Shown: positions 23,447 through 41,326, counted from the first letter of the stretch. The stretch is 64,000 nucleotides of DNA from Candidatus Melainabacteria bacterium 17Bon1m (GCA_032128875.1 JAVLKG010000010.1:1-64000), one strand, 5' to 3'. The notes: a model not told the origin generated them from the sequence alone. Numbers and translations are program-made.

Positions 23447-23485
23447 CAGGGCGCACTAATCCACAGTGCGCCCTGTTCTTAATTT
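23447..23485 (+). terminator. intrinsic terminator-like hairpin
   Basis: 11-bp stem cagggcgcact/agtgcgccctg, 7-nt loop, followed by ttcttaattt; 26 nt after the stop codon. Confidence 0.7.
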
Positions 23486-23661
23486 AGGGCGGTCACCCGC
23501 AGGGGCGATTACATCCAATGTACGGGTAATTACAATATGACTGCCTAGAAAAGGCCTTTCACTTCACTTACCACAAAGTTACTCAGCAGATTAGCTTAAA
23601 ACACTCTGCAATAGAGTCCATAGAGTTCTGGCATTCTCGAATTACCGTCCGGAAACGAGCA

Positions 23662-25578: not shown

Positions 25579-25589
25579 GATTGTGGAAT

Positions 25590-25768
25590 CGTGGGGGCGC
25601 GTTGCACGCGCCCATTTGGCTTGGGTCTGTGTTTAGCGTGGGGGCATTTTGCACACACCCGCCCTTTTGGCCGGGCGGCAGCTTGCCGCCCGTCTTCTGT
25701 AGGGTCGACGCCATGCGTCGACCGGTCTGATCGCCTCCTTCCAGGCGGCATCGGTATTTATGCCGCCT
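25590..25768 (+). repeat. cluster of REP-like palindromes between convergent genes
   Basis: cgtgggggcgcgttgcacgcgccc, gggcggcagcttgccgccc, gtagggtcgacgccatgcgtcgacc, aggcggcat...atgccgcct. Confidence 0.85.
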
Positions 25769-26808
25769 CACTTAGCATCAACTTGAGATTTTTCTCCAGC
25801 CTTCGCAGCGTGCTCTTTTATTTTTTGCTTCTGCTTCTCAATCAGCTCGCGAATTTTGCGCTCATCCTCCGCTCGTTGTCTTCTCAACTCTGGCGCAAGC
25901 CGCTCGTACTCTAGCTCTGCATCTTCAACTTTCGAATTCACTTTGGATGCGGCATGATCAGCCATAGTGATTTTGTCGTAGAAAGCGGAGATCACGTTCG
26001 CCTTGTCGAGCGTATCCTCGCGATACTTCCGTGCCATTTCTTGATTGACGTCGTTCAAAGCGCTTTTGAGCGTTGTTTCAAAATCAGGTCCGTGTGCTGT
26101 AAGTTCTTTTCCTACAATACTGTCCGCAGCATCCTGAGCCACTTTACTCGCCTGTTTGTAGATGTCTATACAAATCGCGGCGTGCCCTTTTTCATGCGCC
26201 ATAACGTCCTCAGAGGCCTTTTCTGGAAGCCACATCGTAATATCTAGCTTCAGAGTCAAATTGACCTTTTTGATTTTGATAACAACATTTTCTCCATCGG
26301 CAGCTCTTTCTCTCTTTATGAGATCCCAGGAGACCTGAGGGATGAAACCGTAATGCCAATGAGTATTTGCACAATCGTTGTGATCAGGCGTATTAGCTTC
26401 CGGTGGACGAGCACCTTTGTCAAAGTACTCGGTCTTAATTTCCGGTGGAATCTGAGTGATCTTCACAGGACCTTGCGAGCAACCTGTAAGAACAGCAGGT
26501 AAAACCAAGAGAATAAACAACGAAAGAAGTTTTTGCAGAAGATTCTGCGAGCGCTTCTGGGAGTGTTTGTGTAGGTGATTCTGTAGGGGCGGCATTAATG
26601 CCGCCCGATGCCGGCGAGCCGCCGGCGCTCCCAGCGACGACTGCAGAGACTGACGAACGACTGTCGCCGAGGAGACTACCGAAGCGAGTAGAGGCAACGC
26701 GCGGAGGGCAGCGCGCAGCAATGCCAGGACCGCATACAAAAAGCGTGTGTGCAACACGCCCCTACGCTCTTTCCAAAAAATGGGCGTAGCTAGAGTTCTT
26801 ACTCTCAT
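25768..26808 (-). CDS. putative zinc-peptidase lipoprotein (DUF922-like)
   Basis: HEKGH (HExxH) preceded by ITMWLP; lipobox VLTGC at about residue 110, so the true start may be downstream of 26808. Confidence 0.7.
   Translation of the reverse strand: MRVRTLATPIFWKERRGVLHTRFLYAVLALLRAALRALPLLASVVSSATVVRQSLQSSLGAPAARRHRAALMPPLQNHLHKHSQKRSQNLLQKLLSLFILLVLPAVLTGCSQGPVKITQIPPEIKTEYFDKGARPPEANTPDHNDCANTHWHYGFIPQVSWDLIKRERAADGENVVIKIKKVNLTLKLDITMWLPEKASEDVMAHEKGHAAICIDIYKQASKVAQDAADSIVGKELTAHGPDFETTLKSALNDVNQEMARKYREDTLDKANVISAFYDKITMADHAASKVNSKVEDAELEYERLAPELRRQRAEDERKIRELIEKQKQKIKEHAAKAGEKSQVDAK
26583..26633. repeat. heterologous REP doublet (inverted copy of 16235-16283)
   Basis: gtaggggcggcattaatgccgccc-gat-gccggcgagccgccggcgctccca; another REP lies at 26743-26766. 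Confidence 0.85.
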
Positions 26809-26818
26809 CTTTGAGGCT

Positions 26819-27628
26819 TTAATCTGTCGGGCTGATCTTTTGGTTGAGTGCTTCTTTAAGCAGCTCGTTCTGCTTCAGAAGGGCACGCAAGTGCTCGTTG
26901 GCAATTGCCAGCTCGGCTTGCAGCTCGGCAACCGTCTGCTCGTGCGTGACACCGGTAACCGGGTCGCGTCCGGGCATCTTCGGCAAAAGCACATAACCCA
27001 ATTGCACGGCTTTCAGCGCGGCTGCAGTGCGCGTAGGCACCTTAAGCTTTGCGAGAATACACTCGATGTGTTTTTCAACCGTGCGGAGTTTCATATCTAG
27101 TTCTTCTGCAATTTCTTTATTACGAAGATCTAGTCGAATAAGAACTTCAATTTCACGGTCGGTCAAATTGCAGTTGGGCATGCTCGTCGAAGGAGCCTGT
27201 TTTACCAACTGAGTAATCTTCGGGTCGCAGTATGGCAACGCGCGAGTAACTTGTTCTATAGCTTCAAATAGAGTTCTTGGACCAGAACTCTTCAGGCAAA
27301 AACCACGGGCGCCCGCTCTCATAAGCTGGTTGTGATATTTGGTCGCGTGATAAGAGTCTGTCAGAACCAGAACATTGGAGTTTGGAAGCTCCTGGCTGAC
27401 GCGCCGGCAGACTTCAACACCATTAAGTACATCAAGATCAACGTCGAGAATTACAAAGTCAGGACGCTGCCTGCGGATCATTTCCGTGGCAGTCATGCCG
27501 TCAGCGGCCTCGCCGATGATATCGACCACTTCCGAAACCACACGCTTCAAGCCGAAGCGAATTAATTCATGTCTTTCGCACAAGATAGTGCGGGGACGGA
27601 AGGGATTGGAGCGGAATGTAGAGTCCAA
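26819..27628 (-). CDS. NarL/LuxR-family response regulator with C-terminal coiled coil
   Basis: REC (VILDVDL, LT, LK) plus LuxR HTH (LTDREIEVL...NKEIAEEL...TVEKH...KLKV); GGAG RBS before a TTG start. Confidence 0.92.
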   Translation of the reverse strand: MDSTFRSNPFRPRTILCERHELIRFGLKRVVSEVVDIIGEAADGMTATEMIRRQRPDFVILDVDLDVLNGVEVCRRVSQELPNSNVLVLTDSYHATKYHNQLMRAGARGFCLKSSGPRTLFEAIEQVTRALPYCDPKITQLVKQAPSTSMPNCNLTDREIEVLIRLDLRNKEIAEELDMKLRTVEKHIECILAKLKVPTRTAAALKAVQLGYVLLPKMPGRDPVTGVTHEQTVAELQAELAIANEHLRALLKQNELLKEALNQKISPTD

Positions 27629-28105
27629 GAATGTCTCCGGAATTAATGCACAACGCCTGGACGGTATATGCGAGGGACATAGGATCCGATTTGATACTCA
27701 GTTTGGCTAAAGGCGTTAGTTATCAGCCGCTTGAGTCTTCCTCGCCTTAATTCTAACAATGCCACAAATTTTCGGAGTAAAACGGTTTTTGATCGCCGCG
27801 GGAGCTTTTGCTTGCAGTTTTTTCTGAACGGTAATTCACATAAATTCCTCTTTACAACAGTTCTTTATTCGTTTTCTTCTCACGATATCTAAATTACAGT
27901 GACGGCATGGCGGCTTCAAAACCGGAACTGGCGGCGTTTTTCGCTTTTTGGACATGGCGTGATGGGAAATATACGAATGGCGTGGGATTCCCCCCAATAG
28001 ACTGACCACCCCCAACATCGTTAAGCTGTGCTCACATTCGCCCCTCGACAACCCCGGGTCGAACTGACAAACCAGCTTCTACGACAAATTCACCTCGATT
28101 CTCAA

Positions 28106-30259
28106 ATGCTCAAACAGTCCTCACTCTTAAAGTTCTCACCGATACTCCTGGCAGTAGCCTTCACGGTTGCCCTGGGCACTCAAAGCGCACTCGCCACAAA
28201 ACTCACGGGAGCACCCCTTCCGTACGAGCGTGAGACCAAAGAATTCAATGACAGCAACGCTGTAGCCATTCCGCCGAGCGGCAGCAGATTCCAGCGCCGT
28301 CTGGACTACCGCGAAGAAGAAAAGCTCAAGAAGCAGCAAGAAGCGGAAGCGGCGAAGAAGGCTGAAGCAGATAAGCTCAAAGCTATTGAAGAGCAAAAGA
28401 AGGCTGCAGCTCAACAAGCAGAAAACGCCAAGCAATTCATCCAAACCGCAATCGACGCAAACAACAGCGCGGTTGCTTTTGGCAAACAAGGACGTTGGAA
28501 CGAAGCAATCGTGGCTCACGAAAAAGCCGTTCAATATGATCCTTCCAATAAGCAATTCAAAATCAATCTTTCCGCCGCCCGCACCGCCTACGGTCAACAG
28601 CGGCTTGCATCACATGATTATGCCGGCGCCGCCCATCTATTTAGACAAGCGCTCGCCGCTGCCAGCGACAACTCGATGGCAGCTAAGCACTTGAGCGAAG
28701 CGCTCAAGAAGCAAGGCATCGATCCTGGTTCGGTCGACCAAAGACTGGAACTGGCTGAAAAACTTATGGGCTCCGGCGACCTCGTCGGCGCTTCGATTGA
28801 AATTCAACAGTGCATGGCTCTCGAGCAGTCCGCCCGCGTATATCAAAAGATGGGCGACCTCTGTGTTCGCTACGGTCAAGTGACCAACGCAATGGCGTAC
28901 TACCGCCAAGCCATTGTTAAGGATGCAGATTATGGTCCGGCTCACAGACAGCTGGCATTCCTGCAAATGTCCAAGAACGACTTTACCGCGGCTGCTGCGT
29001 CTTTGCGCAAAGCCATCATCTGCGACAGCAAAGACGTAGCTGCCGGTCAGGCACTCGTCGAACTCTGGCGCAAACAAGTAGCGCAAAACCCGCTGCTTGC
29101 TGAAAATCATTTGGGTCTGGCTGGCGCCATGCAACTCACGGGTGACTTTGTTGGGGCAGAAGGCGAATATCGCCGCCTCGAAGCACTCGATCCACGTAAC
29201 CCGGGATTGGAATCGGGACGTGCAAGCCTGAAGAGGGCTTATCAGCATGCTATTGCAGAAAAGCACAGAATGGCGGCTGAAACATTGTTCAGCCAAGGGC
29301 TCCGTAGAGAAGCCCTTGGTGAGATCAATCAAGCAGTGATGATGGAAGACAAAAATCCCAAGTACATCTACTTGATGGCGGAATGCCTCGAAGGCATCGG
29401 CAACTATGCCGCCGCCCACGCAGCGTACTTGAAAGTAGTCATCATCGATCCGACCAAGGTCGAAGCTGCAGAACGCGCGAAAGAAATGCAAAAGAACATG
29501 GGCATGAGTGGTGCTCAAGTTGCGCAAATGAGCGGTCAAATCGCCAATCAAATAACTGCGCAGCCTGCACAACAACCGCCGATGCAGCAAGCTCCTCAAC
29601 AAATGAAACCGGCTCAACAGCAAATGCAACAACAGCAATTTGCAGCTCAGCCTCCGGGCAGCTTCCGCGTTGCACAACCTGAAGAGCAAGTACAACAACA
29701 AATGCAACCGCACGATCCTTCGAGAAAGAGCATGTACGAAGGTGGTTCGCAACGTCCTGCTTTCAATCCGCAAGCGATGAACTTCAGAACTCACGATGAG
29801 TCTCAGCAAGCTCAAGCTCAAATGGAACAAGAAATGCAACAGCAAGCTCGCCAACAGGCGATGCAGGCTCAACAAGCACAAGCTCAAGCGCAACAAGCTC
29901 AAGCACAACAACAACAACAAGCTCAAACCGCAGCCCAAGCCAATGGCGCTCCGGTCAGCACCAACGATGCACTGAGCCAAGTAAGCGTTCTTGAATCACA
30001 AAGGGACTACCAAGGTGCAGCCACTCTGCTCAGACAAATGTGCGATGCCGACGTACAAAATCCTGAGCTCCACCACAGACTGGCTACCAACCTTCTTAAT
30101 CTCGGACAAGTTGTCGAGGCAATCCCCGAGTTCCGCATCGCCAGCGCACTGAAGCCGGCAATGAAAGCCTACTCGGACGACCTGGCACGGGCAATGGCAA
30201 TTCACAAGCGTTCACTCATGAGTGACAAATCAGATTCTAGCGTTAGCGGGAGCAAGTAA
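28106..30259 (+). CDS. exported tetratricopeptide-repeat protein with Gln-rich linker
   Basis: Signal peptide MLKQ...ALGTQSALA; many TPR helices; Q/A/P-rich segment; TAA stop immediately abuts the ATG of the rpoB paralogue; start may be 28028. Confidence 0.9.
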   Translation: MLKQSSLLKFSPILLAVAFTVALGTQSALATKLTGAPLPYERETKEFNDSNAVAIPPSGSRFQRRLDYREEEKLKKQQEAEAAKKAEADKLKAIEEQKKAAAQQAENAKQFIQTAIDANNSAVAFGKQGRWNEAIVAHEKAVQYDPSNKQFKINLSAARTAYGQQRLASHDYAGAAHLFRQALAAASDNSMAAKHLSEALKKQGIDPGSVDQRLELAEKLMGSGDLVGASIEIQQCMALEQSARVYQKMGDLCVRYGQVTNAMAYYRQAIVKDADYGPAHRQLAFLQMSKNDFTAAAASLRKAIICDSKDVAAGQALVELWRKQVAQNPLLAENHLGLAGAMQLTGDFVGAEGEYRRLEALDPRNPGLESGRASLKRAYQHAIAEKHRMAAETLFSQGLRREALGEINQAVMMEDKNPKYIYLMAECLEGIGNYAAAHAAYLKVVIIDPTKVEAAERAKEMQKNMGMSGAQVAQMSGQIANQITAQPAQQPPMQQAPQQMKPAQQQMQQQQFAAQPPGSFRVAQPEEQVQQQMQPHDPSRKSMYEGGSQRPAFNPQAMNFRTHDESQQAQAQMEQEMQQQARQQAMQAQQAQAQAQQAQAQQQQQAQTAAQANGAPVSTNDALSQVSVLESQRDYQGAATLLRQMCDADVQNPELHHRLATNLLNLGQVVEAIPEFRIASALKPAMKAYSDDLARAMAIHKRSLMSDKSDSSVSGSK

Positions 30260-33200
30260 ATGACGTTTTACTTTCAAGCACCAGACTTAGCTGAGTTCCC
30301 GAGACGCTCGTACCGGCGCTTCACGGAAGAGATCATTGGCAATCTCTTCACTGAAATTTCGCCGATTTCCAGCGATTTCTCGCCACGCTTCGAATTATCT
30401 TTTATCGGACCAGATGGAAAGCCGCACTGGAGATTCGAAGACTACGCTGCAGACTCAGGCTATCCAACAACTCCAGAACAAGCCAGAAAAACAAACATGA
30501 CTCATGCAAAGCGCATGATGATGGAAGTTTGGTTGCGCGACATTCAAACCGGCGAAATCCGCAAGTCGACCGCATACATGGGCGATGTTCCGGTAATCAC
30601 AGACCGCGGAACCTTCGTAATCAACGGTTCTGAGCGTGTCGTTCTCGGTCAGCTCGTCAGAGCTCCCGGCATCTATTTTTCCAACCCGACCCACATCACA
30701 TACAAAGCTCTGATGTTGGCAGAACAGGGCGCACCAATCACCTTTGAATTGGAACTCGACCCCACCATCTCCAGCCGCGCATCCAAGGCTAAGTGCCGTG
30801 TCAAATTGCCCAAGCGTGCTTGGGTTTCCGCCCAGACCTTGCTTTTGGCAATGGGCGTCGACGAAGCCATTCTCGAAAAGAGACTTAAGCCGCTTCTCGA
30901 AGCAAGACGTATTGAATGGAAAAACATCACCAAGACTGAAGCATTGGCTGTCATCGGACGTTCGTGGAAACCGGACGGTGGCGGTGGCGCAGGCGGCGGT
31001 TTGGTCGCATTGCAAGAATTGACCGACAAGAGAAAGTATTCGCTCGGCAAACTGGGCAGAAGACGTTTCAACAAGAAGATGGGCTTGGATGAAGAATCCC
31101 ACCAAGTCACCGGCATGGACTTGCTCAACATCTTCGAATATCTCCTGAACTTGCCGAACGGCATGGGACAACTGGACAACCCAGACTCCTTGGAAAACCG
31201 CCACTTGCGCGGTGTCGGCGAAACCATGACCCGTGCAGTGCGTCCCGCTCTGGCACAAATGGTTCGCTCGCTCAAGACCAGACTGGAAATGAACGAAGAC
31301 GAAGAGATTGGTTCACCCAACGACATTCTCGACTGCCGTCCGTTCGCCAACGCAGTAATGAAGTACTTCTCGGGCAACCCGCTCGTTCAGTACCTCGACC
31401 AACAAAATCCTCTGTCCGAACTTTCGCACAGAAGAAGAATCACATCGTTCGGTCCTGGTGGTATCGACCCCAACGCTGCTCCTACAGAAATGCGTGACGT
31501 TCACCCGTCGCAAATCGGTCGTGTCTGCCTGGTTGAATCGCCTGAAGGTAAGAACTGCGGTATGGTCAGCTACATGGCGACCTACTGCCGCATCGACGAA
31601 GACGGCTTCATGACCGTGCCTTACCGCCGCGTCATCAACGGATTCTTGACCGATGAAGTTGTATACCTCGCTCCTGGCGACGACAAAATCTACACATTGG
31701 CACCGCCCGATGCGAAAGTAGCCAACGACCACTTGGTCGGACCGCTCGTACCGGCAAGACGCGGTGAGAAATTCTTCGAAGTCGCACCCGAAGAAATCGA
31801 CATGATCGGTATCACGCCACAAGGTTTCTTGTCTGTAGGTTCTGCTCTTATCCCATTCCTGGAGCACGACGATACGGGACGAGCCCTCATGGGTGGTGGC
31901 ATGATGCGCCAAACTTTGCCGCTCATCAAGCCTGAGCGTCCGCGCGTCGGAACAGGCATGGAGCGCATTGTCGGACGTTCGTCCGGTCACTCGTTGGCTG
32001 CAAAACGCGCCGGCACCGTGACCAGCGTCACCGGCAAAGAAATTGTCATCACGCAACCTTCTGGCGAAAAGCGCTACTACCCACTCATTCGTTACGACAG
32101 AACCAACCAAAACACTATCCTCGACCAACGCCCAGCAGTTAAGGTCGGACAGCAAATCGAAGCCGGTCAAATCATCGCTGACGGTCCTGGTATCGACCAA
32201 GGTGAATTGGCACTAGGACGCAATTTGCTCGTAGCCTTCATGCCGTGGCGCGGTTACAACTTTGAGGATGCGATTGTCGTCAGAGAAGGTCTGGTCAAAG
32301 ATCAAAAACTGACTCACATTGAAATTGAAAAACATTCGACCAACGTTTATCAAACTCTGCGCGGTCCTGAAATTCTCACGCCTGAAATGCCGAACGTTGC
32401 AGGCAAAGACCTCGAGCACTTGGACGAACGCGGCATCGCCAAAATCGGCAGCTACGTCAATCCTGGTGATGTTTTGGTCTCCAAATTGACCCCGAAAGAA
32501 GCTCGCGCTCTTTCTGCAGAAGAAGAACTCTTGCAAGCAGTATTCGGCAAAGTCGCCGAAGAAATGGCAGACAGCAGCCTGCGCGTACCGCACGGCTCCG
32601 GCGGTCGCGTCATCGACATCCGCATCTTCACTCCGGAAACAACGCCGGAATTGAAAGCAGGCGTCATCTGCGAAATCGAAGTTCTCATCGCCAGACTCTG
32701 CCCGGTTGAAGTGGGCGACAAGCTGGCAGGACGTCACGGAAACAAAGGCATCGTTTCAATCATTGTTCCGGATTGCGACATGCCCTACTTGCCGGACGGC
32801 ACCCCTGTAGACCTCTGCTTGAACGCACTCGGCGTACCTTCCCGTATGAACGTCGGTCAGGTATTCGACGCTCAGTTGGGTCTCTACTCGCAGATTTTGA
32901 ACCGCTATTACCGCATTCACCAATTCGACGAGTCACTCACCGAAGACGCATCCTTCCGCCTCATCAACGAAGCGCTCAAAGAAGCTCGCAAGATGCCCGG
33001 TTACGAATGGCTGCAAGCCAACGGCAAAGTGCAACTTTTCGACGGCAGAACCGGTGAGCCTTTCGATCGCCCGGTCTTGGTCGGTCGCCAGTACATGTTG
33101 AAGTTGAACCAACTCGTACTGCACAAAGTCAACGCTCGCTCCGGTCTCGGTGGACCGTACGCAGCAGTCACACAACAGCCGGTCGGCGGAAAAGCCAACC

Positions 33201-35107
33201 ACGGTGGACAAAGAATGGGCGAAATGGAAGTTTGGGCAATCCAAGCTTACGGCGCCGCCAATATCCTGCACGAGATGATGACCATCAAGGCAGACGATAT
33301 CCAGGGCAGACACCAAGCCTACGCCGATATGGTTCAAGGCAAGGAAATCACTGCCGGCGGACGCACCGCTGCATTCGACGGTCTGTGCTGCGAATTGCGC
33401 GGACTGGGCATGGAAGTCACTTTGGGCAAGATCGTCGACGATTTCGAACCCGTCGCAGACCGTTCTTGCAGCAAAGAACAAGCGCCCAAGACGCTCGAAG
33501 AAGAATATCAAGTCATGTCTGTGGACAAGGTGGAAGCGGCAGATGGCTCCAAGATCCTGGAAATTCCAGCAGGAGACTACGTGCCCCAAACCAAGCCACT
33601 GGCAGCACCAATCATCACGTCGCTCACCAACGGCAAAAACGGTTCCAAGCCGAAAATCGAAATCTCTCAAGAACCACTCATCGACGATATCGACGAGTCG
33701 GATTCGGAAGACGCCGAGGACGCTGGAGCAGCAGCCGACGGCTGGACCATCAGAATGCCAGTCAATCAACAGGCTCCGGCTTTCGATGCGACAAAGAGCT
33801 CCACTGCAATTCCGAGCATGCCCGGTTCGTTCGCCGCTGCGCCGTCAGAAGGTGTCACACCGCCTGCCGACGACAAGGTCAAGTCGATGTTGGATTCCTT
33901 TATAGAGGAACAAACCAAAGACGTCCTGGCCGGTCTCGACCTGGAAAACCTCGACCTGTCCAATCTGGACATGTTCGATTCGCTCGAAGCACAGGAAGCC
34001 CTCCTGGCGGCATTCGATGCCAAAGATCACAATGGCAACGACGAAGCAGAGCGTGGGGGCGCATTGCATGCGCCCAACCTGGGTGGCCATGTGTTGGGTC
34101 AACCAGTTCCACACAATCTGTTCGCCGATCAGCCTGCCCAGCCAATCAAAAATGAGCCTGTGCAACAACCATTGGATGGTTTTGGACCGCTCAGCATGCG
34201 CATCAATCAGCGCAATCCGAAGAATATCGAACAAGAAGCTCCGGCTTCGGAAAGCGAAGCTCGTGGGGGCGCGTTGCACGCGCCCGCGGAAAACGTTGAA
34301 CAAGTTTCAACCGAAGCGCCATCCGCTGTTCCAGTTGCTGAAGCTCCGGTAGCCGCTCCAATCGTTGAAGCTCCAGTAGCCGCTCCCGTCGTTGAAGCAC
34401 CAGTTGTCGAAGCCGCACCAGCGCCAGCTCCTGTAGCCGCAGCGCCAATATTCCTGCCCTTCCCGACTGCACAAGCACCGGCAACGCCAGCACCTGCGCC
34501 AGTTTCGGAACCAGTGGCAGAACAAGTATCCGAGACGGCTGTAGCACCAGTCACGGCTCCGGCACCCTCAATCGTGCCAGTAGTCAGAGCTTCGGCGCCT
34601 GTTCAACAGCCACAAGCTCCAGCAGTTCAACCTGAAGCTCCATTCGCTCCAGCAGCGCCTGTGATTCAAGCTGTAACGTCTGCTCCCGTGATTCAACCAA
34701 TCACGCCGGCACCTGCAGCACAGCCTGTAATCCAGCCGGTGACAGCAGCTCCACAGGCGAAAGCTCTGACAAACGAAAGCTTCGAGCCTTCGTTCGAGCC
34801 AACCACTGAGGACGAACCTGATTTCGGCTCTATCTTAAGTATGTCCATTCTGCAAACCGCCGACGCTACGGTAAGTCAAACACAGCCTGCAAGCCAGTCC
34901 GGATTGTCAGCTCTCGGCAACGAACTGACCCAGACCTCAGCACAGCCGCTAGTTGACTTCCCTTCGTTGACAGAACTGAAGTCGCTTGCCACCGAGCTCA
35001 TGAGCATGAACCTTGTGGACACTCGGGTGGGAGTAGGTGCCGGTAACGACGAAAAATTCGCAAATTCTTCGTCGAACCATGAGGAAACTACGAAAACAAG
35101 CGACTGA
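30260..35107 (+). CDS. rpoB: divergent paralogue of DNA-directed RNA polymerase beta subunit with ~560-aa acidic Pro/Ala-rich tail
   Basis: All beta conserved regions in order: GTFVINGSERV, DQQNPLSELSHRRR..GPGG, RDVHPS..GRVC..ESPEG, LIPFLEHDD, GYNFED, GDKLAGRHGNKG, GVPSRMNVGQ, DGRTGEPF, TQQPVGGK..GGQRMGEMEVWA; core ends near 33430; no rpoC or rplL nearby. Confidence 0.95.
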   Translation: MTFYFQAPDLAEFPRRSYRRFTEEIIGNLFTEISPISSDFSPRFELSFIGPDGKPHWRFEDYAADSGYPTTPEQARKTNMTHAKRMMMEVWLRDIQTGEIRKSTAYMGDVPVITDRGTFVINGSERVVLGQLVRAPGIYFSNPTHITYKALMLAEQGAPITFELELDPTISSRASKAKCRVKLPKRAWVSAQTLLLAMGVDEAILEKRLKPLLEARRIEWKNITKTEALAVIGRSWKPDGGGGAGGGLVALQELTDKRKYSLGKLGRRRFNKKMGLDEESHQVTGMDLLNIFEYLLNLPNGMGQLDNPDSLENRHLRGVGETMTRAVRPALAQMVRSLKTRLEMNEDEEIGSPNDILDCRPFANAVMKYFSGNPLVQYLDQQNPLSELSHRRRITSFGPGGIDPNAAPTEMRDVHPSQIGRVCLVESPEGKNCGMVSYMATYCRIDEDGFMTVPYRRVINGFLTDEVVYLAPGDDKIYTLAPPDAKVANDHLVGPLVPARRGEKFFEVAPEEIDMIGITPQGFLSVGSALIPFLEHDDTGRALMGGGMMRQTLPLIKPERPRVGTGMERIVGRSSGHSLAAKRAGTVTSVTGKEIVITQPSGEKRYYPLIRYDRTNQNTILDQRPAVKVGQQIEAGQIIADGPGIDQGELALGRNLLVAFMPWRGYNFEDAIVVREGLVKDQKLTHIEIEKHSTNVYQTLRGPEILTPEMPNVAGKDLEHLDERGIAKIGSYVNPGDVLVSKLTPKEARALSAEEELLQAVFGKVAEEMADSSLRVPHGSGGRVIDIRIFTPETTPELKAGVICEIEVLIARLCPVEVGDKLAGRHGNKGIVSIIVPDCDMPYLPDGTPVDLCLNALGVPSRMNVGQVFDAQLGLYSQILNRYYRIHQFDESLTEDASFRLINEALKEARKMPGYEWLQANGKVQLFDGRTGEPFDRPVLVGRQYMLKLNQLVLHKVNARSGLGGPYAAVTQQPVGGKANHGGQRMGEMEVWAIQAYGAANILHEMMTIKADDIQGRHQAYADMVQGKEITAGGRTAAFDGLCCELRGLGMEVTLGKIVDDFEPVADRSCSKEQAPKTLEEEYQVMSVDKVEAADGSKILEIPAGDYVPQTKPLAAPIITSLTNGKNGSKPKIEISQEPLIDDIDESDSEDAEDAGAAADGWTIRMPVNQQAPAFDATKSSTAIPSMPGSFAAAPSEGVTPPADDKVKSMLDSFIEEQTKDVLAGLDLENLDLSNLDMFDSLEAQEALLAAFDAKDHNGNDEAERGGALHAPNLGGHVLGQPVPHNLFADQPAQPIKNEPVQQPLDGFGPLSMRINQRNPKNIEQEAPASESEARGGALHAPAENVEQVSTEAPSAVPVAEAPVAAPIVEAPVAAPVVEAPVVEAAPAPAPVAAAPIFLPFPTAQAPATPAPAPVSEPVAEQVSETAVAPVTAPAPSIVPVVRASAPVQQPQAPAVQPEAPFAPAAPVIQAVTSAPVIQPITPAPAAQPVIQPVTAAPQAKALTNESFEPSFEPTTEDEPDFGSILSMSILQTADATVSQTQPASQSGLSALGNELTQTSAQPLVDFPSLTELKSLATELMSMNLVDTRVGVGAGNDEKFANSSSNHEETTKTSD
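34052..34075 (+). repeat. REP palindrome in-frame in the rpoB-paralogue tail (RGGALHAP)
   Basis: cgtgggggcgcattgcatgcgccc, identical (rc) to intergenic 44956-44979. Confidence 0.9.
34262..34285 (+). repeat. REP palindrome in-frame in the rpoB-paralogue tail (RGGALHAP)
   Basis: cgtgggggcgcgttgcacgcgccc, identical to intergenic copies at 25590, 37821 and 61881. Confidence 0.9.
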
Positions 35108-35184
35108 AGTGGGTAATCTCCCCATTGGATCCTCGTGAGTATTTCGTCATTATGTACTCACAAACCGATGGAGGAAGTCCCTAG

Positions 35185-36162
35185 ATGGCGACGCAAGAGA
35201 GCACCTTTAGAAATACGGCAAAAGCGATTCTCGTCGCATGCCTCGTTTCTGTCGGTATTTCCTTCGCTGTTCCTCAAAGTTCTTCCGCACAGTTTGCACA
35301 ACCGCTGCCTCCCTATCAGGCACCGCCGGAAGGCGCACCGCCTCCGATCGGCGACGGCAGCACCCCGCTCCAAGTTGAGCCGGGCGATGTGCAAGCACCA
35401 CCTTCGGTTCCATCTGGTGCAGCTGATTCGACTCCGGGACACAACTTCCCGGTAGGCAACGGCAGCAACAGAAGCGTTGTCCGCATCTATCGCCAGCGCG
35501 CTGGCGGTGCAACTGGACAAAATCGTGGCGAAGGCATGGTTCAAACGATCCGCCCTGATCAACTCTCGGCAGATCAAATCAGCCAAATTAATGGCATTCT
35601 CGGAATTAACATGCTGAACGGTCAAGATTCGCAAGATGTTCAAGCATCCAACGATCAAATTGAGCAAGTACAGAACGTTCTGTTCCCGTACCCACAAGCT
35701 CAAGACCAAGGCGGCAAGAAGTTCATCAACAGTGATGCTCCTGCACAAGGCTATCCAAAAGCCGGTCAAGAGAGCAGCTATGAATTCCAAGGTCCGCTTC
35801 CAACAGTAAGAACATTCTGCCGTTACCTGGTGATACTAGGTGTGGTGAGTGCCACCATCTGGATGGCTTTGTCAATGTACGCGATGGTCATGGGACACCC
35901 TTACGGCGGTGCACGTGTAGTCGGCTCGATAGCTGGATTCATGCTGCTCCTCATGGGCTACACCATCTGGAAGATTGTGCAGATGAACACCTTCAATGCG
36001 ATGAGTGACAGACCTGCAATCGTTCAGAACAGACCGAATGATGCGCAATCAAATCAAATGAATGCGCCGGATTTACCGCCCAACAATCCTGGGGCGGGTG
36101 GCGGAAGACCAAACAGGTCAGGCGTGCCGGTTATGCCTCTGTACAACGCGCAAAACCCATAA
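35185..36162 (+). CDS. exported/membrane protein with C-terminal two-TM hairpin resembling TrbC/VirB2-type pilin
   Basis: Signal peptide, P/Q/G-rich region, then YLVILGVV..TIWMA...Y..VMG......VVGSIAGFMLLLMGYTIWKIV; GGAGGA RBS. The pilin resemblance is by eye. Confidence 0.7.
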   Translation: MATQESTFRNTAKAILVACLVSVGISFAVPQSSSAQFAQPLPPYQAPPEGAPPPIGDGSTPLQVEPGDVQAPPSVPSGAADSTPGHNFPVGNGSNRSVVRIYRQRAGGATGQNRGEGMVQTIRPDQLSADQISQINGILGINMLNGQDSQDVQASNDQIEQVQNVLFPYPQAQDQGGKKFINSDAPAQGYPKAGQESSYEFQGPLPTVRTFCRYLVILGVVSATIWMALSMYAMVMGHPYGGARVVGSIAGFMLLLMGYTIWKIVQMNTFNAMSDRPAIVQNRPNDAQSNQMNAPDLPPNNPGAGGGRPNRSGVPVMPLYNAQNP

Positions 36163-36256
36163 GGCTTGAAACAAGCGAATCGGTAAGCGACAGAGCAAGT
36201 TCTTAGACATCTAAAACATCGTCTAGTAGAAACACGTAGTTCGAAGGGACACAGCA

Positions 36257-36961
36257 ATGGCATTGGGTAATACAGCTAATTTGATTCTCGCGGCAGTTGC
36301 GGCCTCGACCCTCACTTTGTCTGTTGCCGCACCGCAAGCTCAAGCCGGTCGTCCTAGTCAATCAGACTACTTCGCGACTGGTGGACATAGTGTTCCACCT
36401 GCAAAACCAGCACCGGCTCAAGACAACAGCAAGTATCCGAAAAACACCGATCCGCTCGCAGGACGCCAAGGCGCCGGAGCACTGTACTCGGACAAGTCTC
36501 CTCAATTAGATTGGTTCGAAATCTTCGATGAGTACGTTTGGACACTGCTACCAAATGAAGAAGACAAATCAGTTCTTTCCCGACCAATCAACAACGAACT
36601 GGAAAGAGTGCAGGACTACATCAAAGTTTGCTCAAAGATTTCCAAGAACTATAGAACTCTAGCAATCAACGTTCGAAAACTTCCAGTACCGCCAAACAGC
36701 CCAGGGCTCAATAAATATCAAACTCTGAAAGCTGACTTCTATGTAGATATGGCGACGGTATACGAAGACTTGATTCGACCAAGAAAAACTAGAACACAAG
36801 AAGAATTACAAGCGCAGCTTCAAGACATCAAAGAAAGAGCAGAGCAACTAAAGGTAAACAGTAACAACCTGCTCACCATGGACATGGACCTTAGACGAAC
36901 CTTCCGAGTACACCAGCCGAAACGCACAGATGCCTTGAGGCGATACGTAGAAAACAAGTAA
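36257..36961 (+). CDS. secreted helical hypothetical protein
   Basis: Signal peptide ending QAQA; helical/coiled-coil body; GAAGGGA RBS. Confidence 0.8.
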   Translation: MALGNTANLILAAVAASTLTLSVAAPQAQAGRPSQSDYFATGGHSVPPAKPAPAQDNSKYPKNTDPLAGRQGAGALYSDKSPQLDWFEIFDEYVWTLLPNEEDKSVLSRPINNELERVQDYIKVCSKISKNYRTLAINVRKLPVPPNSPGLNKYQTLKADFYVDMATVYEDLIRPRKTRTQEELQAQLQDIKERAEQLKVNSNNLLTMDMDLRRTFRVHQPKRTDALRRYVENK

Positions 36962-37037
36962 CGGTAACAACAGCTCCTAATTCGCACCCCCGCGAATCTC
37001 TCTTTCACCCAATCACACCCGCAGAGGACGCACCCAA

Positions 37038-37814
37038 ATGGCTATCCAACTCAACGACAGAGATCTCCTGATCTTCCAATTGATTGATGAGCACAGGGTC
37101 CTGCTTGAAAAACATATTTCCTGGTTTATTTCCGGCGAAGACAAGCCTGTTCTTATCCGCGATCGCCTACGGAAGTTGTTCTATCTGGACTACCTGCTCT
37201 GCCACCGTCACGGCACCAAACTTCCCTGGTGGACAACGCCCACCAAGCCGCTCGTATACATGCTCTCTGGCATCAGCCGCTCAGCAGCCAATGTTGGCGA
37301 AGAAGAGCTTGACCTTTATGACAGCGAAATTCAACGTCACTTCCTCGAAGTAGCCAACCTGAGAATGCTTGGCCTCATCGATCAGAAAGACGAGAAGCTC
37401 TCGAAATTCACCTGGACGACAGTGAAAACTGAAAAGCCCGGCAAGACCGTCGACGCTTTCGTCACCTTCGTTCAAAACGCAAGAACTCACAAGATCGCCA
37501 TCGTCAACCATGCGACCGCAACAACTGAATTGATTCCTTCGATTGACGAAGCCATCAAATCCGGTGCCGAACATGTGTTGCTCGTATCACGCGATGACGC
37601 TCACCAGGCTGCTTTGCAAAAGATTGTTGCACAAAGTGGATCGATCAACATCAAGCGCTGCTTGTTTGCGACCCACCATGAAATCTATCGCGAAGGTTTG
37701 ATCACCACCGCGTGGACTACATGCGACAACGCCAAAGCAACCGTGTTTGCAAAGCCTGTGGAAGCTGCTCCGACAACCAACTGGGCAACCATGCCGGTAG
37801 CAACAGCCGTGTAA
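37038..37814 (+). CDS. Replic_Relax-like protein (wHTH plus degenerate PD-(D/E)XK-like domain)
   Basis: LNDRDLLIF..I.EHR.L...HI...IRDRLRKL...YL...P.VY.L and H.LEV pattern typical of the replication-relaxation family; VDA present but no E-x-D; AGAGGA RBS. Confidence 0.7.
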   Translation: MAIQLNDRDLLIFQLIDEHRVLLEKHISWFISGEDKPVLIRDRLRKLFYLDYLLCHRHGTKLPWWTTPTKPLVYMLSGISRSAANVGEEELDLYDSEIQRHFLEVANLRMLGLIDQKDEKLSKFTWTTVKTEKPGKTVDAFVTFVQNARTHKIAIVNHATATTELIPSIDEAIKSGAEHVLLVSRDDAHQAALQKIVAQSGSINIKRCLFATHHEIYREGLITTAWTTCDNAKATVFAKPVEAAPTTNWATMPVATAV

Positions 37815-37820
37815 GAGTGG

Positions 37821-37898
37821 CGTGGGGGCGCGTTGCACGCGCCCAACTGTAGGGGCGCATTATGCGCCGAGTTGTAGGGGCGATGCAGTGCGTCGCCC
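37821..37898 (+). repeat. three REP-like palindromes at the 3' end of the rpoB-paralogue operon
   Basis: cgtgggggcgcgttgcacgcgccc, gtaggggcgcattatgcgcc, gtaggggcgatgcagtgcgtcgccc. Confidence 0.88.
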
Positions 37899-38206
37899 GG
37901 TCCGAAAGACAAAGATTGAAATAACCAACCTATTTCGATTACTGAACCTTCCGGACCACCGAAGCTGACCGCTATGCTAGCAACTTGCGCAACGCGTAGC
38001 ACTCTTGGATTTTGACCCAAGGCGTCACATCGGGGTATGCGAATGAGCATCTGGTATGCGGAGTAATTTAAAAAACTCCCTCCTGAAAGCGTGGCAACTA
38101 CATACCTGTAATCTCCGATGTGTTTACTAGATAGAAAACTGAATACAGATCACAACCTTTTCGTGATAGGTTGGAATAACGACGTCTGCCTCGAAGAGGG
38201 TGCGCC

Positions 38207-39355
38207 ATGATCAATCCGGCGAATTTGGGTAATCTTCCAACGCCTGTTGGCACTTTTGCGACGGTTTTTCTTTCGCTACTCGCAGTTGTCACTTCGCCTT
38301 TTCTTGTGCCGCTGCATGATCATTTGGAATGGCAACACATTTCTCATGTAGAAATTAAAGCTGGTCATCTGTCGCACTTTCAGTTTGGAAAAGAAGAGTT
38401 TGATGCTTGCGAAATTTACTGGCGGAACGAACTAAAGTGGCATTTGATTGATAAAACACATGACCGACTGTATGGAATCGCTAACGTTAGATTGGCAGAT
38501 GTTCTATGCAGAAAGTCCCGCTATTATGGACTACCAATTCCTGCCGAGCTAGAAGCACTCTACATTGAAGGTCTCAAGGTCGAAGAAGCACTGGACGAAG
38601 AACCTGGCCATCTGGCTAATGCAGCCGAGGCACTAGCAAATTTTTATCAGTTGCGAAAGAGATATGTCGATTCCGAGAATATTTTGAAGACTAAGTTGGC
38701 TTCGTTGAAAAACCCATACGCACATCGGGGGATGGAAATTATTACTCAACTCGGTGATCAATATATTGAACAGAAACGCTATCAAGAAGCAGTTACGCTT
38801 TGGACTGAAACATTTTCAAAACGGAAAAAATTTGCCGCCTTTAAGTGGGAAGACCCATTTTATCTCTGCGAACTTGCTCGCGCGTATCACGGAATGGGTG
38901 ATTATTCGCACGTGATCGCAATCTGCGAAAAAGCCCTGCGCTATGGAAATTCAGCAAACACGCAGCTCCGTCCATACCTTGCAAATGCGCTACACAAACT
39001 AGGTAGAGACGAAGAAGCAATCTCACATTACTCTCGAGATCTCAAATTTGAGAGGGAACGGAGAGGATGGACAAGGATCGGAGACAAATTTGTAATGAGC
39101 GCAACTCCTCTCCCAGACACACAAACTGGTGCAGGAAGTGATTTGTTTGCTCTTGGAGAAATTTATTTTGAACAAAGGCAATACGCCAAGGCAGAGCCAT
39201 TATTAGTGGAAGCACTAGACATCGGCAATAGAAAACTCAAAGAAGAACAGCCGGCATTTGTTCGAGAATCAGAGACCGAATGGGTGGCAAAGGTCCAACA
39301 CACCTTGGAAAAGCTCCACAAATGCCAGGGACGAGCTTCCAATACCAAGTTTTGA
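38207..39355 (+). CDS. membrane-anchored TPR protein
   Basis: N-terminal TM; TPR helices such as LGEIYFEQRQYAKAEPLLVEALDI; GAAGAGGG RBS. Confidence 0.85.
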   Translation: MINPANLGNLPTPVGTFATVFLSLLAVVTSPFLVPLHDHLEWQHISHVEIKAGHLSHFQFGKEEFDACEIYWRNELKWHLIDKTHDRLYGIANVRLADVLCRKSRYYGLPIPAELEALYIEGLKVEEALDEEPGHLANAAEALANFYQLRKRYVDSENILKTKLASLKNPYAHRGMEIITQLGDQYIEQKRYQEAVTLWTETFSKRKKFAAFKWEDPFYLCELARAYHGMGDYSHVIAICEKALRYGNSANTQLRPYLANALHKLGRDEEAISHYSRDLKFERERRGWTRIGDKFVMSATPLPDTQTGAGSDLFALGEIYFEQRQYAKAEPLLVEALDIGNRKLKEEQPAFVRESETEWVAKVQHTLEKLHKCQGRASNTKF

Positions 39356-39401
39356 AGCGGATTTCGGATTAACCCCTTTTAGACGCAAACATTGTCGTTA
39401 A

Positions 39402-40961
39402 TTACCGCCCCGGGGAACGTGTGCGCAGCGCAGCTTCGACATTCTGCCGCAGGCGCGTTGGCAAACTTCCCGCAAGTGCGGTTATTCTTTGGCGTGCAGT
39501 ATCTCTATCCGCGCGGACTTCGGGTGAGAATGCCGTGCCGCCGGCCGACTCGACAAGTTGCCAGCGCTCTACATAAGCGCGGGTCAACCTAGTAAGGTTG
39601 CGAGCAAATTCCGCTTGCGACATGCTTCCGCGCGCGCTAACGAGTCTGTCGAGTAGTTCGTTTGCTCTCACTACGTTCGTTGCGCGGTAAAAGGTATCCA
39701 AGCTCACGGGGCGATCGTTTCGATCTGACTCAGGGCCGTATTGGTCGTCATATCGCACAGTGCGCGTTACTGGATCGTATCCAGTGATGGTGACAAAATG
39801 ACCGTCGTTGAAAATGTTATCGGGCACCTCAGCGCGCTGCCGCAGAGTTTCACGATTAATCGGCCGAGTTTCACCACTAGTTGACTGAGTAAGCAACTCG
39901 CTATTTGCGTGCACAAAAACAACTGCAGGCATCCGACCAGAGCTTGCGAGGCGTTCCAAAGTCTGTCCAAGATCATCAGCACTAGCGAAGGTAGCCGCGC
40001 GCGAAGAGGTTCTTCCATGTCGCTCCTGACTCACGATGAAAGCGTCGGCCTCATCTCTTCGCCCCGTAATGCTTTCATTGGCAGCGATCAAGCCGTTCGG
40101 TCTGCCGGCGGCGCCTGGCTCTCGCTCAACCACACGCCCGGAGCGAACATCCACCAGCGCCTCACCGAAGTCGCCTCTGCTCTGAGGCGGACGCTGCTCA
40201 TATCTCATCGAGCGAAAATCGCGATCCAAAATATTAGCTATGTTAGCTGCCGTTACTTGAAACAACTGGCTGGCAAAATTGCGGCGGCTTGGCTCTTGCT
40301 CAAGCTCGGTGGTGCCCAACACCGATGGAGTCAGGCTACGATTATCGAGACGCACCGTGGTGCCATCATGACAGGAGAAAGAACCGCGTGTCGCGACATC
40401 GGCTACGAGAGCAGCAGCAGCGGAAGGTTGCCGCATGTATGTGCGTACCTCTAAGGATGTGACGTTGCAGGTGTTTTCGTTTTGCCGAATCTCAGTCGGA
40501 CGCGCGGCATTGTGCATCACCTGAGAAGCCAGAGCAAGTCTTTCTGCGCGTGCAAGACGAGCGTCAGAACCAGCATCTAGTATGCGCGACACTTGTCTGA
40601 ATGTCTCGGCGATTTCCCTTTCACTTATGCCGGATGATCTCGCACGCTCTGTAAATGAGTCCATATCGCGGGAAAAACGTTCACCACGCGCCCGCAATTC
40701 AGGAGTCGAATAAGATTCAGAAACTTGGCGTCGAAGGGCGCTTTCAGGGGTTTCGGCAACTCTAGCTGATTCGTTCGGTACGTCGACTAACTCAAGGCGA
40801 GGCAAGGATGTCGGAAGGGAAGACACTTCATGCCGCGCATGAATGTTTCGGAATTCAGTTCTGTCGATATCGTTAATCGATAAGGCAGGAGTTCTGGAAG
40901 CTGCGCGTTCTCCTTCACCGGCTTGGCGCGCTTCGGGACGAAACTGTAGTTCGTTTGGCAT
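39402..40961 (-). CDS. putative papain-fold cysteine protease-domain protein
   Basis: QNENTCNVTS (Q...C), GHFVTITGYD (H) and YDDQYG in papain order; no signal peptide; start 40961 preferred over 41006. Confidence 0.65.
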   Translation of the reverse strand: MPNELQFRPEARQAGEGERAASRTPALSINDIDRTEFRNIHARHEVSSLPTSLPRLELVDVPNESARVAETPESALRRQVSESYSTPELRARGERFSRDMDSFTERARSSGISEREIAETFRQVSRILDAGSDARLARAERLALASQVMHNAARPTEIRQNENTCNVTSLEVRTYMRQPSAAAALVADVATRGSFSCHDGTTVRLDNRSLTPSVLGTTELEQEPSRRNFASQLFQVTAANIANILDRDFRSMRYEQRPPQSRGDFGEALVDVRSGRVVEREPGAAGRPNGLIAANESITGRRDEADAFIVSQERHGRTSSRAATFASADDLGQTLERLASSGRMPAVVFVHANSELLTQSTSGETRPINRETLRQRAEVPDNIFNDGHFVTITGYDPVTRTVRYDDQYGPESDRNDRPVSLDTFYRATNVVRANELLDRLVSARGSMSQAEFARNLTRLTRAYVERWQLVESAGGTAFSPEVRADRDTARQRITALAGSLPTRLRQNVEAALRTRSPGR

Positions 40962-41326
40962 GGTTAATCCAGGGGATGCAATCGAACGAAAACAGCCACC
41001 CCGCATGAAGTGCTGCGAAGCAAACGATGAAATTCGATTGGCTTTTAGAAACTGGTGCGGGTGCGCGATGTCACTACAACATCAATACCGAACTGTTGTG
41101 ACATGAAGGTAACATTTCCGGCTCGCGTAAGATTCCGGCATTAAATCTGGTAGCTCTGTACGCCATTCACTTCATATTTTGCCGGTCAGTGGCGATGTTT
41201 CCCCCATGTCAAACTGGCGCTTTATTGTCTCCATGCAGGCATTCACATCTGCCCCCACCAACTTCCCTCAAGCTTGCCTGGTTCGACAAACCGTGCGCGG
41301 CTTGCTTTTACCTTACAGGTCTTTAC

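Follow-up and report, generated by a model that had tools for sequence, protein, structure and literature searches.

To our knowledge, bacteria are taught to possess a single RNA polymerase (RNAP) core that is reprogrammed via sigma factors, and the only exceptions that we know of on the side of the beta subunit are near-identical duplicates in a few actinomycetes. These duplicates are approximately 85-95% identical, occur sporadically in antibiotic-producing actinomycetes, and have neither a tail nor a dedicated operon. In actinomycetes, a second rpoB is reported to coexist with the housekeeping rpoB and a single beta' subunit (PMC5431353). Here we analyze a 64,000-nucleotide (nt) stretch of DNA from Candidatus Melainabacteria bacterium 17Bon1m (GCA_032128875.1 JAVLKG010000010.1:1-64000; hereafter, the window) that encodes a full-length, divergent beta subunit, denoted RpoB', in an operon with envelope proteins. 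An earlier note on this DNA had singled out the gene as an orphan rpoB paralog and had offered three options, namely, an alternative beta subunit swapped into the core RNAP, an envelope-associated RNAP variant serving DNA transfer, and an exported or decoy subunit.

The presence of a second beta subunit in an envelope operon throughout an entire order suggests that these bacteria can swap the catalytic subunit of the polymerase. Judging from the sequences, we hold with modest confidence that RpoB' functions as an alternative beta subunit, inherited vertically and specific to Obscuribacterales. The system had been considered undescribed, and a search of the full-text literature, with subscription journals and supplementary files outside its reach, found no description of a second rpoB in this lineage.

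The rpoB' operon and its conservation

The window belongs to contig C10 of a 7.55-Mb genome that consists of 35 contigs and is 93% complete; window coordinates are used for the locus throughout. The operon comprises five co-oriented open reading frames (ORFs), which encode a tetratricopeptide repeat (TPR) protein, RpoB', and three proteins denoted d1, d2 and d3. The conserved block ends at a hairpin resembling repetitive extragenic palindromic (REP) sequences.

28028/28106-30259, plus strand: TPR gene, 717 amino acids (aa) from the ATG at 28106
30260-35107, plus strand: rpoB', 1615 aa, intact
30260-33427, plus strand: RpoB' core, aa 1-1056, a divergent beta subunit of full length, colinear with the canonical copy
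33428-35107, plus strand: RpoB' C-terminal tail, aa 1057-1615
35185-36162, plus strand: d1, membrane protein
36257-36961, plus strand: d2, periplasmic helical protein
37038-37814, plus strand: d3, cytoplasmic Replic_Relax-like protein
37820-37844, plus strand: REP-like hairpin, 6 nt past the d3 stop, repeat family D1, 96%

The description of the operon given in the earlier note is confirmed: the ORF scan recovers all five co-oriented genes at the same places, the TAA stop of the TPR gene directly abuts the ATG of rpoB', neither rplL nor rpoC nor any Rpb1 domain is found in the window, and the operon ends at the REP-like hairpin. This hairpin marks the end of the conserved block, given that the next gene (38207-39355) is retained in none of 20 loci compared. 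The earlier note passed over four features that are described below: the disordered C-terminal tail of RpoB' (about 560 aa), the divergent regulator gene at 26819-27628, the conserved cis element at 27962-28038, and the two in-frame REP-like copies within rpoB'.

The conservation of gene order was assessed in 20 genomes from 20 genera of family f1, one per genus, chosen for their long contigs. With tblastn, the TPR gene, rpoB', d2 and d3 were detected in all 20 loci and d1 in 19 (it is absent in L057 of genome G038), with constant order and orientation, so that the five-gene synteny proposed for this locus is borne out across the genera sampled. Genes further downstream of d3 are kept in at most one of the 20 loci. 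In 15 loci, the stop of the TPR gene and the start of rpoB' share 4 nt; in three loci they share 1 nt, and in the remaining two they abut, which argues for co-translation of the two genes. Upstream, the operon is preceded by a conserved chromosomal neighborhood that consists of pyrF, a gene for a 184-aa protein, an LmeA-like gene and a response regulator gene. The GC content of the block is 0.50-0.55 compared with 0.44-0.54 in the flanks, so that the composition is not anomalous. The locus belongs to a stable region of chromosomal synteny and is not a mobile element.

Two beta subunits in one genome

PF00562 is represented by two loci in this genome, the copy in the window and C9:262382-263578. 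Contig C9 carries the canonical set in a row, rpoB (1179 aa), rpoC1 (601 aa) and rpoC2 (1228 aa), and these rpoC1 and rpoC2, beside the canonical rpoB, are the only ones in the genome. Rpb1_1, Rpb1_5 and RNA_pol_A_bac are found at one locus each, that is, rpoC1, rpoC2 and rpoA are all single, with rpoA located on C10, the same contig as the window. The separate canonical locus that had been postulated is thus present, and RpoB' is a true orphan paralog. The two beta subunits are colinear, with 43% identity over 1060 aa and 29 gaps, and RpoB' lacks the first 15-20 N-terminal residues of canonical beta. The concern that the locus might be a misassembly is put to rest by two single closed chromosomes that each carry both beta copies, at 0.91 and 4.23 Mb in G004, and at 5.27 and 0.42 Mb in G037.

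On contig C9, a tyrosine recombinase (Phage_integrase, 1.7e-53) is encoded just upstream of the canonical rpoB, and a protein with Fic/DOC and helix-turn-helix (HTH) domains downstream of rpoC2; the coordinates of these neighbors are L003:14039-15076 and L003:2002-3060.

Matches to RpoB' with at least 71% identity were found in 90 of the 107 genomes of the order Obscuribacterales; here and below, such counts are over related genomes, which are not independent samples. Among the 17 genomes of the order that lack a match, 14 are less than 90% complete. In two of the other three, the high-quality genomes G025 and G049, d3 is located 1.7-2.5 kb from a contig end, which places the missing rpoB' in a gap of the assembly. 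As for the sister family f2, both rpoB' and d3 are present in G003, and neither is seen in G001 and G002. RpoB' was found in none of the 151 genomes of nine other families of the class Vampirovibrionia and in none of 150 further genomes of the phylum; these outgroup genomes each contain one match, at about 42-46% identity.

A search of 5.8 billion proteins returned approximately 100 clusters at 69-100% identity, after which the matches drop to 42%. Where named, these clusters come from Obscuribacterales or Melainabacteria, apart from two labelled as Planktothrix metagenome-assembled genomes, labels that we take to be binning noise. When clustering at 50% is used, the RpoB' family amounts to a single cluster at 2035 bits and one fragment, and the next protein scores 786 bits. 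One genome with 8% contamination, G019, shows two copies of the paralog (C50:306-3758 and C21:133995-137438), matched at 79-80% identity.

Phylogeny and selection

In phylogenetic trees of RpoB, the paralogs are monophyletic (support 100), on a stem of 0.75 in the FastTree tree and 4.41 under LG+C20 PMSF, which is the long-branch paralog clade that the earlier note had led us to expect. The FastTree tree held four rows for which the longest ORF was not rpoB (L110, L114, L115, L120); these were excluded afterwards. The branching order of the paralogs mirrors that of the canonical gene tree, and the paralog is not nested inside the canonical clade of the order. Among proteins with solved structures, the best relatives are cyanobacterial beta chains (8syi_C, 902 bits; 8gzg_C, 887; 8h3v_A, 876).

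The placement of the stem was evaluated with the approximately unbiased (AU) test, by regrafting on a fixed backbone under LG+F+G4, a model more prone to long-branch effects. With this caveat, the p values for RpoB' as sister were 0.084 for the canonical beta of the order, 0.46 for Vampirovibrionia, 0.47 for the phylum and 0.61 for a Margulisbacteria row, none of which is rejected; the test does reject a sister relationship to family f1 only (0.009), to an oxyphotobacterial pair (0.036) and to Bacillota (0.003). We read these results as pointing to an event no later than the root of the order, either an old duplication or the acquisition of the gene from a close relative. The subsequent history we read as a probable burst of change followed by stasis and vertical descent.

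The two copies within one genome share 42.5-45.7% identity in 17 genomes. In the 136 pairs of these genomes, the median identity is 80% for RpoB' vs 90% for canonical RpoB, and RpoB' is the more diverged protein in 135 pairs, which corresponds to about 2.1-fold faster evolution. The ratio of nonsynonymous to synonymous substitution rates (dN/dS) of the core is 0.005-0.039 in eight same-genus ortholog pairs, compared with 0.022 for the canonical gene, and that of the tail is 0.13-0.28 in same-genus pairs. The value for the core is far below one, as it had to be for the gene to be functional in the sense of the earlier proposal, and the RpoB' core is under purifying selection as strong as that on the housekeeping enzyme.

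Retained and altered residues of the RpoB' core

All six Rpb2 domains of Pfam (1, 2, 3, 45, 6 and 7) are present in the canonical order within aa 67-1055 of the 1615-aa ORF, in agreement with the description of the protein as an intact, full-length, divergent RpoB. RpoB' scores above the NCBI equivalog cut-offs for rpoB (NF001616, 1043.7 vs 896; TIGR02013, 995.9 vs 801), and the canonical copy scores 1628 and 1664, respectively.

Residues were numbered via a three-way alignment with the E. coli RpoB from NZ_CP100918.1. By this numbering, RpoB' keeps D516, H526, R529, R678, R687, Q688, E813, D814, K1065, K1073, R1106 and K1242, as well as the flap-tip pattern LLxA(I/V)FG. Of these, we take E813, D814, K1065, K1073, R1106, R678 and Q688 to be active-center residues, with E813 and D814 at the Mg/nucleoside triphosphate site. 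The changed residues are Q510P, S512V, K527R, S531T, L533F, H554Q, Y555I, P560L, T563S, P567K, L571M, I572V, N684G, Q686M, V690L, H1237Q, D1240L, D1241H, H1244N, S1252A, L1253A, E1279Q, P1320T and S1322A, and fork loop 2 is replaced outright (GLTRERAGFE to GIDPNAAPTE).

The claim that many near-invariant residues are altered withstood a count over alignment columns. In 66 canonical RpoBs from several phyla, 183 columns are invariant with at most one exception; the paralog keeps 152 of these and changes 31, and in 21 of the changed columns the new residue is identical in all 22 paralogs. Relative to the canonical beta of Obscuribacterales, fixed differences number 216 and fixed identities 320. 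In the blocks for catalysis and assembly (aa 521-560, 641-680, 841-880 and 921-1000), 62-78% of the consensus is shared with canonical beta, compared with 17-42% in the lobe and protrusion, in agreement with the Pfam domain scores. Rewriting followed by freezing is seen in fork loop 2, in the region of the rifampicin pocket, in the NMQRQ and 1237-1253 segments and, at the periphery, in the lobe and protrusion.

The changed segments presumably line the channel of the hybrid and the initiating site, together with the pockets for rifampicin, GE23077 and pseudouridimycin, which are the docking regions of beta that we have in mind when considering inhibitors. RpoB' could accordingly be viewed as a replacement target, a spare beta subunit that is insensitive to a natural inhibitor or a protein toxin and is induced when the envelope module senses the compound. 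If this assignment of the pockets is right, S512V, Q510P, S531T, L533F, I572V, P567K, N684G, Q686M and fork loop 2 all fall in segments that line them. Furthermore, aa 361-440 are conserved within each copy, at 91-95% in the paralogs and 100% in the canonical copies of the order, with only 45-47% common to both. The rpoB duplicates of actinomycetes offer a precedent with the same logic (PMC5431353), compared with which the present one is much older. Yet a few substitutions suffice for insensitivity, in contrast to the 57% divergence, rebuilt lobe and protrusion, and tail of 120 to 560 aa seen here. The classic positions of high-level rifampicin resistance, D516, H526 and R529, are kept, in contrast to S512V, S531T, L533F and I572V, and the phenotype is not readable from sequence. 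Nor is the gene patchily distributed like most resistance genes, being a universal core gene of the order in a fixed operon, and no biosynthetic or efflux genes are linked to it in the 20 loci. Taken together, we regard target replacement as rather unlikely.

The same counts bear on a role outside the polymerase, whereby RpoB' would be non-catalytic and would serve as a decoy, sponge or scaffold, its beta-like surfaces and acidic tail capturing nucleic acid, sigma factors, regulators or foreign proteins that bind beta. The change of 17% of the universally invariant beta positions, the missing 15-20 N-terminal residues, a long acidic tail that could mimic nucleic acid, and the lack of a second beta' to pair with are all compatible with such a role. 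It is difficult to reconcile, however, with the retention of E813, D814, K1065, K1073, R1106, R678 and Q688, which would be dispensable for a decoy, and with selection on the core as strong as that on the housekeeping enzyme, the best-conserved blocks being the catalytic ones. We consider this role improbable.

The idea of an exported subunit was rejected: none of the 20 RpoB' orthologs has a signal-peptide-like N-terminus, and export, as offered in the earlier note, is left without support.

The C-terminal tail of RpoB'

The tail that follows aa 1056 is about 560-568 aa long in the window and 126-285 aa long in the aligned tails of other genera; the total length of the orthologs in the 20 loci is 1173-1611 aa, compared with 1615 aa in the window. 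The tail is rich in proline and alanine, has no Pfam match, and is predicted to be mostly disordered. It is acidic in 14 of the 15 tails aligned (14-26% aspartate plus glutamate), the aberrant tail of L052 having 8%. Several motifs recur across genera, namely, LEIPAGDYxP, PxITSxTxG, SQEPLIDDI, (S/A)FI and a near-terminal DFPSLSELxxLAxEL. An AlphaFold2 model of aa 1037-1221 has a mean predicted local distance difference test (pLDDT) value of 61; confident prediction is confined to a beta-hairpin at about aa 1077-1106, and the rest is at about 50-60. The complex prediction of RpoB' aa 1040-1615 with d3 scored 0.00 (mark 0.32), which counts neither way.

Two REP-like hairpins are found in frame within the tail:

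34051-34075, plus strand: in-frame REP-like hairpin, repeat family D1, 88% to the reference, encoding ..RGGALHAP..
34261-34285, plus strand: second in-frame REP-like hairpin, repeat family D1, 100% to the copy at 25589-25613

These GC-rich hairpins are normally intergenic, with further copies at 25589-25613, 25636-25660 and 37820-37844. The two in-frame copies suggest that repeat insertion helped to inflate the RpoB' tail in this genus, at least in part. In genome G013 (L052), the RpoB' frame diverges from the consensus of the family past ..DKSCSQ and stops early, at 1173 aa, where its tail is basic; this could be either a frameshift or a real truncation.

The response regulator and the upstream element

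The operon is flanked upstream by a divergently oriented regulator gene and a conserved non-coding element:

26819-27628, minus strand: response regulator of the NarL/FixJ type, divergent from the operon
27962-28038, plus strand: conserved non-coding element, 5' of the TPR gene

The regulator contains Response_reg (PF00072, 1.3e-17) and GerE (PF00196, 7.4e-11) domains, and its NCBIfam matches (NarL, UvrY and MadR-like) are all below the equivalog cut-offs. It is 84-99% identical in all 20 loci. Orthologs with at least 83% identity are confined to the order, in 46 of 47 genomes of family f1 and in G001 of family f2; in all 151 genomes of the other families, the identity is at most about 40%.

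The upstream element of about 77 nt is the only strongly conserved block of the intergenic alignment, which spans 13 genera with a mean column identity of 31%. It contains two TGGGA boxes 21 nt apart, the second of which is a GGGA..CCCA quasi-palindrome. Next come a -35-like TAGACT (27998-28003) and, after a spacer of 18 nt, a -10-like TAAGCT (28022-28027), and then a conserved GTGCTCAC. In a regular-expression scan of the window and the 20 loci, the element was detected in 19 of 21 cases; L040 has a variant, and in L048 it was not found. It is also present at loci in which the regulator and the operon are set apart by other genes. The element is unique in the genome, with one exact match and nine matches at 2-3 mismatches vs 23 for the reversed control. 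A search of this genome for a regulon with the same element returned only the copy of the operon itself, so that no regulon is definable. In its architecture, the element looks like a weak, activator-dependent promoter/operator for a dimer of the NarL/DosR type, with a resemblance to the DosR box.

The TPR protein, d1, d2 and d3

Signal-peptide-like N-termini are found in 19 of 20 TPR proteins, 19 of 19 d1 proteins and 18 of 20 d2 proteins, and in none of the 20 d3 proteins. Thus, the TPR protein and d2, described earlier as exported and as a secreted helical protein, respectively, indeed have the predicted features of such proteins. In the TPR protein, the signal-like N-terminus is followed by a stretch rich in lysine and glutamate, TPR repeats, a glutamine-rich linker and a C-terminal TPR block; its only Pfam matches are to TPR families, and it is 42-97% identical in the 20 loci. 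The helical protein d2 (alignment A3) is 31-80% identical in all 20 loci, and an Atlas search with it returned nothing above 0.87 and no named family. None of d1, d2 and d3 has a match in Pfam, NCBIfam or PADLOC. The PADLOC search of the operon and the regulator yielded nothing at 0.001 or better, the best matches beyond this threshold being weak, RT_I-B for the TPR protein (0.0062) and CARF-labelled HTH rows for the regulator.

In the membrane protein d1, a signal-like N-terminus is followed by a periplasmic part rich in proline and glycine, a small domain that is conserved, and a pair of neighboring transmembrane helices connected by a short loop; this two-helix hairpin region is invariant in the ortholog alignment A2. 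Hydrophobic 19-mers number one to three per ortholog, with two or three in 18 of 19, about 190 extra periplasmic residues precede the hairpin, and there is almost no cytoplasmic part. The pilin-like character assigned to d1 is retained as far as the signal peptide and the two hydrophobic helices go, and an Atlas language-model score of 0.77 is a weak lead in the same direction; the TrbC/T4SS_pilin models PF04956 and PF18895, however, match none of 19 orthologs at E values up to 1, and no type IV secretion genes are linked. Likewise, no type IV secretion system (T4SS), relaxase or coupling-protein families were found among the window ORFs scanned, nor any type IV secretion genes among the families common to the 20 loci. 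The label "conjugation-like" is thus not supported, the Atlas score being the sole hint.

The N-terminal 80 aa of d3 form a nearly invariant region resembling a winged HTH (wHTH; alignment A1). The AlphaFold2 model of d3 has a mean pLDDT of 72, with 84-93 in the C-terminal domain, which adopts a restriction-endonuclease-like (PD-(D/E)xK) fold. The best VIA-align matches are the small subunit of R.BspD6I (Z 8.0), FokI (7.8) and PaqCI (7.7), in the borderline Z range, with the top rows in agreement; in a Foldseek search against the PDB, there was no match at E 0.001 or better. Direct Pfam matches to Replic_Relax (PF13814) were found for none of 19 d3 proteins at E values up to 1. When the alignment of d3 was compared by hhalign with an alignment of bona fide Replic_Relax proteins from the same order (A4), the two matched over 234 columns with 96.5% probability and an E value of 7.4e-10. 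The A4 members are above the Pfam cut-off, with 4e-10 for the genome's own copy. The assignment of d3 as a Replic_Relax-like wHTH protein thus stands at the level of profile-profile comparison and fails at that of Pfam detection and of the acidic motif, because the D...ExD motif (..DAT.., LLEIDTGN; invariant E178 and D180 of A4) reads (I/V)xN in d3. With the ExD motif lost, d3 is probably not a nuclease; by its sequence, it is a divergent, probably inactivated paralog of Replic_Relax proteins.

The bona fide Replic_Relax gene (G000:C1:828184-828675; L143:9907-10746) is conserved as a single chromosomal copy in 54 of the 61 genomes compared from the order and has unrelated neighbors, an uncommon situation for a family whose name refers to plasmid functions.

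The relationship of d3 to Replic_Relax, the pilin-like two-helix topology of d1, the REP-like repeats that flank the block, and the position of the paralog outside the canonical clade of the order could all be accommodated by a horizontally acquired mobile, defense or conjugation module, or by an assembly or binning artifact. Such an origin is nonetheless exceedingly improbable. Both beta genes reside on single closed chromosomes, rpoA is on the contig of the window, the chromosomal neighborhood is conserved, and the paralog phylogeny mirrors the species phylogeny. In addition, there is no PADLOC family at the above threshold, no T4SS or relaxase family was seen among the ORFs scanned, a Bacillota donor is rejected by the AU test (p 0.003), and the composition shows no anomaly.

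Possible function of RpoB'

Among the three options of the earlier note, the swap of an alternative subunit into the core RNAP fits best. We consider it somewhat probable that RpoB' serves, under regulation, as an alternative beta subunit and thereby gives rise to a second RNAP isoform. Under the mechanism that we propose, the order-specific NarL-type regulator would bind the GGGA..CCCA boxes and turn on the operon from the conserved weak promoter. RpoB' would then compete with or replace canonical beta on the common alpha2-gamma-beta'-omega scaffold, yielding a second isoform that would differ from the canonical one in initiation, hybrid handling and partner set, with the acidic tail as a possible landing pad for the recruitment of partners. 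Because the operon would be regulated as one, we propose that the subunit swap is coupled to the envelope module, that is, to the TPR protein, d1 and d2, and to the putatively DNA-binding, catalytically dead d3. The whole could constitute a signal-controlled program that joins envelope remodeling with reprogrammed transcription.

Several points weigh against this interpretation. The altered fork loop 2, N684G, Q686M, H1237Q, D1240L/D1241H and H1244N adjoin the active center, so that catalysis could be weakened or changed. No link to transcription is known for the envelope proteins, which make up three of the five products of the operon, and a direct, anti-sigma-like tether by d1 is unlikely because this protein has almost no cytoplasmic part. 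The putative link between the regulator and the promoter consists in adjacency, co-distribution in related genomes and a palindrome. Finally, nearly all the genomes are metagenome bins.

A bolder version of the alternative-subunit hypothesis, which we deem decidedly improbable, is a switch of the catalytic subunit on an envelope-linked two-component signal. Here, the reconstruction of fork loop 2, of the hybrid pocket and of the surroundings of the initiating site would change what the RNAP starts with or copies, for example, through primed or non-canonical initiation or RNA-templated synthesis, and the tail would recruit partners like a C-terminal domain (CTD). RpoB' would then belong to a second bacterial RNAP in the full sense, beyond sigma-level variation.

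Other features of the window

In this genus, an insert of approximately 8 kb (18714-26808) is located between the LmeA-like gene and the regulator, with ORFs of 863, 663 and 346 aa and a TadE/G-like protein of 638 aa (Pfam Tad, 6e-4). A TadG-like homolog (33-37% identity) is encoded directly 3' of d3, on the same strand, in four other genera (L040, L041, L042 and L046). Further upstream, the minus strand encodes an 1108-aa protein with an N-terminal Tubulin_2 domain (9494-12820; PF13809, 9.7e-57), adjoined by a 633-aa protein with a VWA domain (13524-15425, minus strand), so that the two form a tubulin-like/VWA pair.

Rfam yielded no RNA family over positions 20000-45000, and in a simple promoter/terminator scan, the sites were no more numerous than in shuffled sequence. 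Four public runs labelled as transcriptomic RNA-Seq (X1-X4) contain the whole stretch and were compared over positions 23000-42900. With contigs of 19 kb, records up to 182 kb and flat depth over genes on both strands, these runs look like genomic DNA and are silent on transcription.

Comparison with known systems

Throughout an order, an ancient second beta subunit has been kept under strong selection, with a regulator and an apparent promoter of its own and a tie to envelope genes. If RpoB' assembles into a polymerase, it would provide a natural experiment on the roles of the initiating site, the rifampicin pocket and fork loop 2. It would also add a level at which transcription is controlled, namely, exchange of the catalytic subunit, and possibly yield a naturally inhibitor-insensitive polymerase. 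On the practical side, RpoB' passes the cut-offs of rpoB markers and can thus be expected to distort rpoB trees, amplicon surveys and contamination estimates for this lineage; as a duplicated marker, it may contribute to the 4-6% contamination of the closed genomes G004 and G037.

RpoB' qualifies as a member of the RpoB family by its domains, its scores and its catalytic residues, and departs from housekeeping rpoB in gene context and invariant residues. It resembles the cyanobacterial-type housekeeping beta subunits (8syi_C, 8gzg_C and 8h3v_A) in the order of the core domains, the length of the core and the catalytic residues. It differs from them in its 43% identity to the beta subunit of its own genome, the lack of linkage to rplL and rpoC, the 31 changes among 183 invariant columns, the rewritten fork loop 2 and rifampicin region, the disordered acidic tail, the envelope operon and the 2.1-fold faster evolution.

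By analogy only, the locus is comparable to the envelope modules of extracytoplasmic function (ECF) sigma and anti-sigma factors, in which a swappable polymerase subunit is likewise accompanied by membrane and periplasmic proteins as an envelope-linked switch; unlike in these modules, the swapped part would be the catalytic beta subunit, and no sigma or anti-sigma domains were found here. The d3 protein shares with Replic_Relax (PF13814) full-length profile homology, with a wHTH N-terminus and a restriction-endonuclease-like C-terminal domain, and is distinguished from it by falling below Pfam detection, by the loss of the acidic motif and by being chromosomal rather than plasmid-borne.

A further parallel is with the actinomycete duplicates, Nonomuraea rpoB(R)/rpoB(S) and Nocardia rpoB2, in which a second beta subunit is likewise combined with one beta' and the rifampicin region is altered. 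The proposed outcome there is also a second form of the polymerase with altered expression properties (PMC5431353). Unlike these duplicates, RpoB' is 42.5-45.7% identical to the canonical copy in the 17 genomes compared, is universal in an order of Cyanobacteriota, and is encoded in a fixed operon with a regulator of its own.

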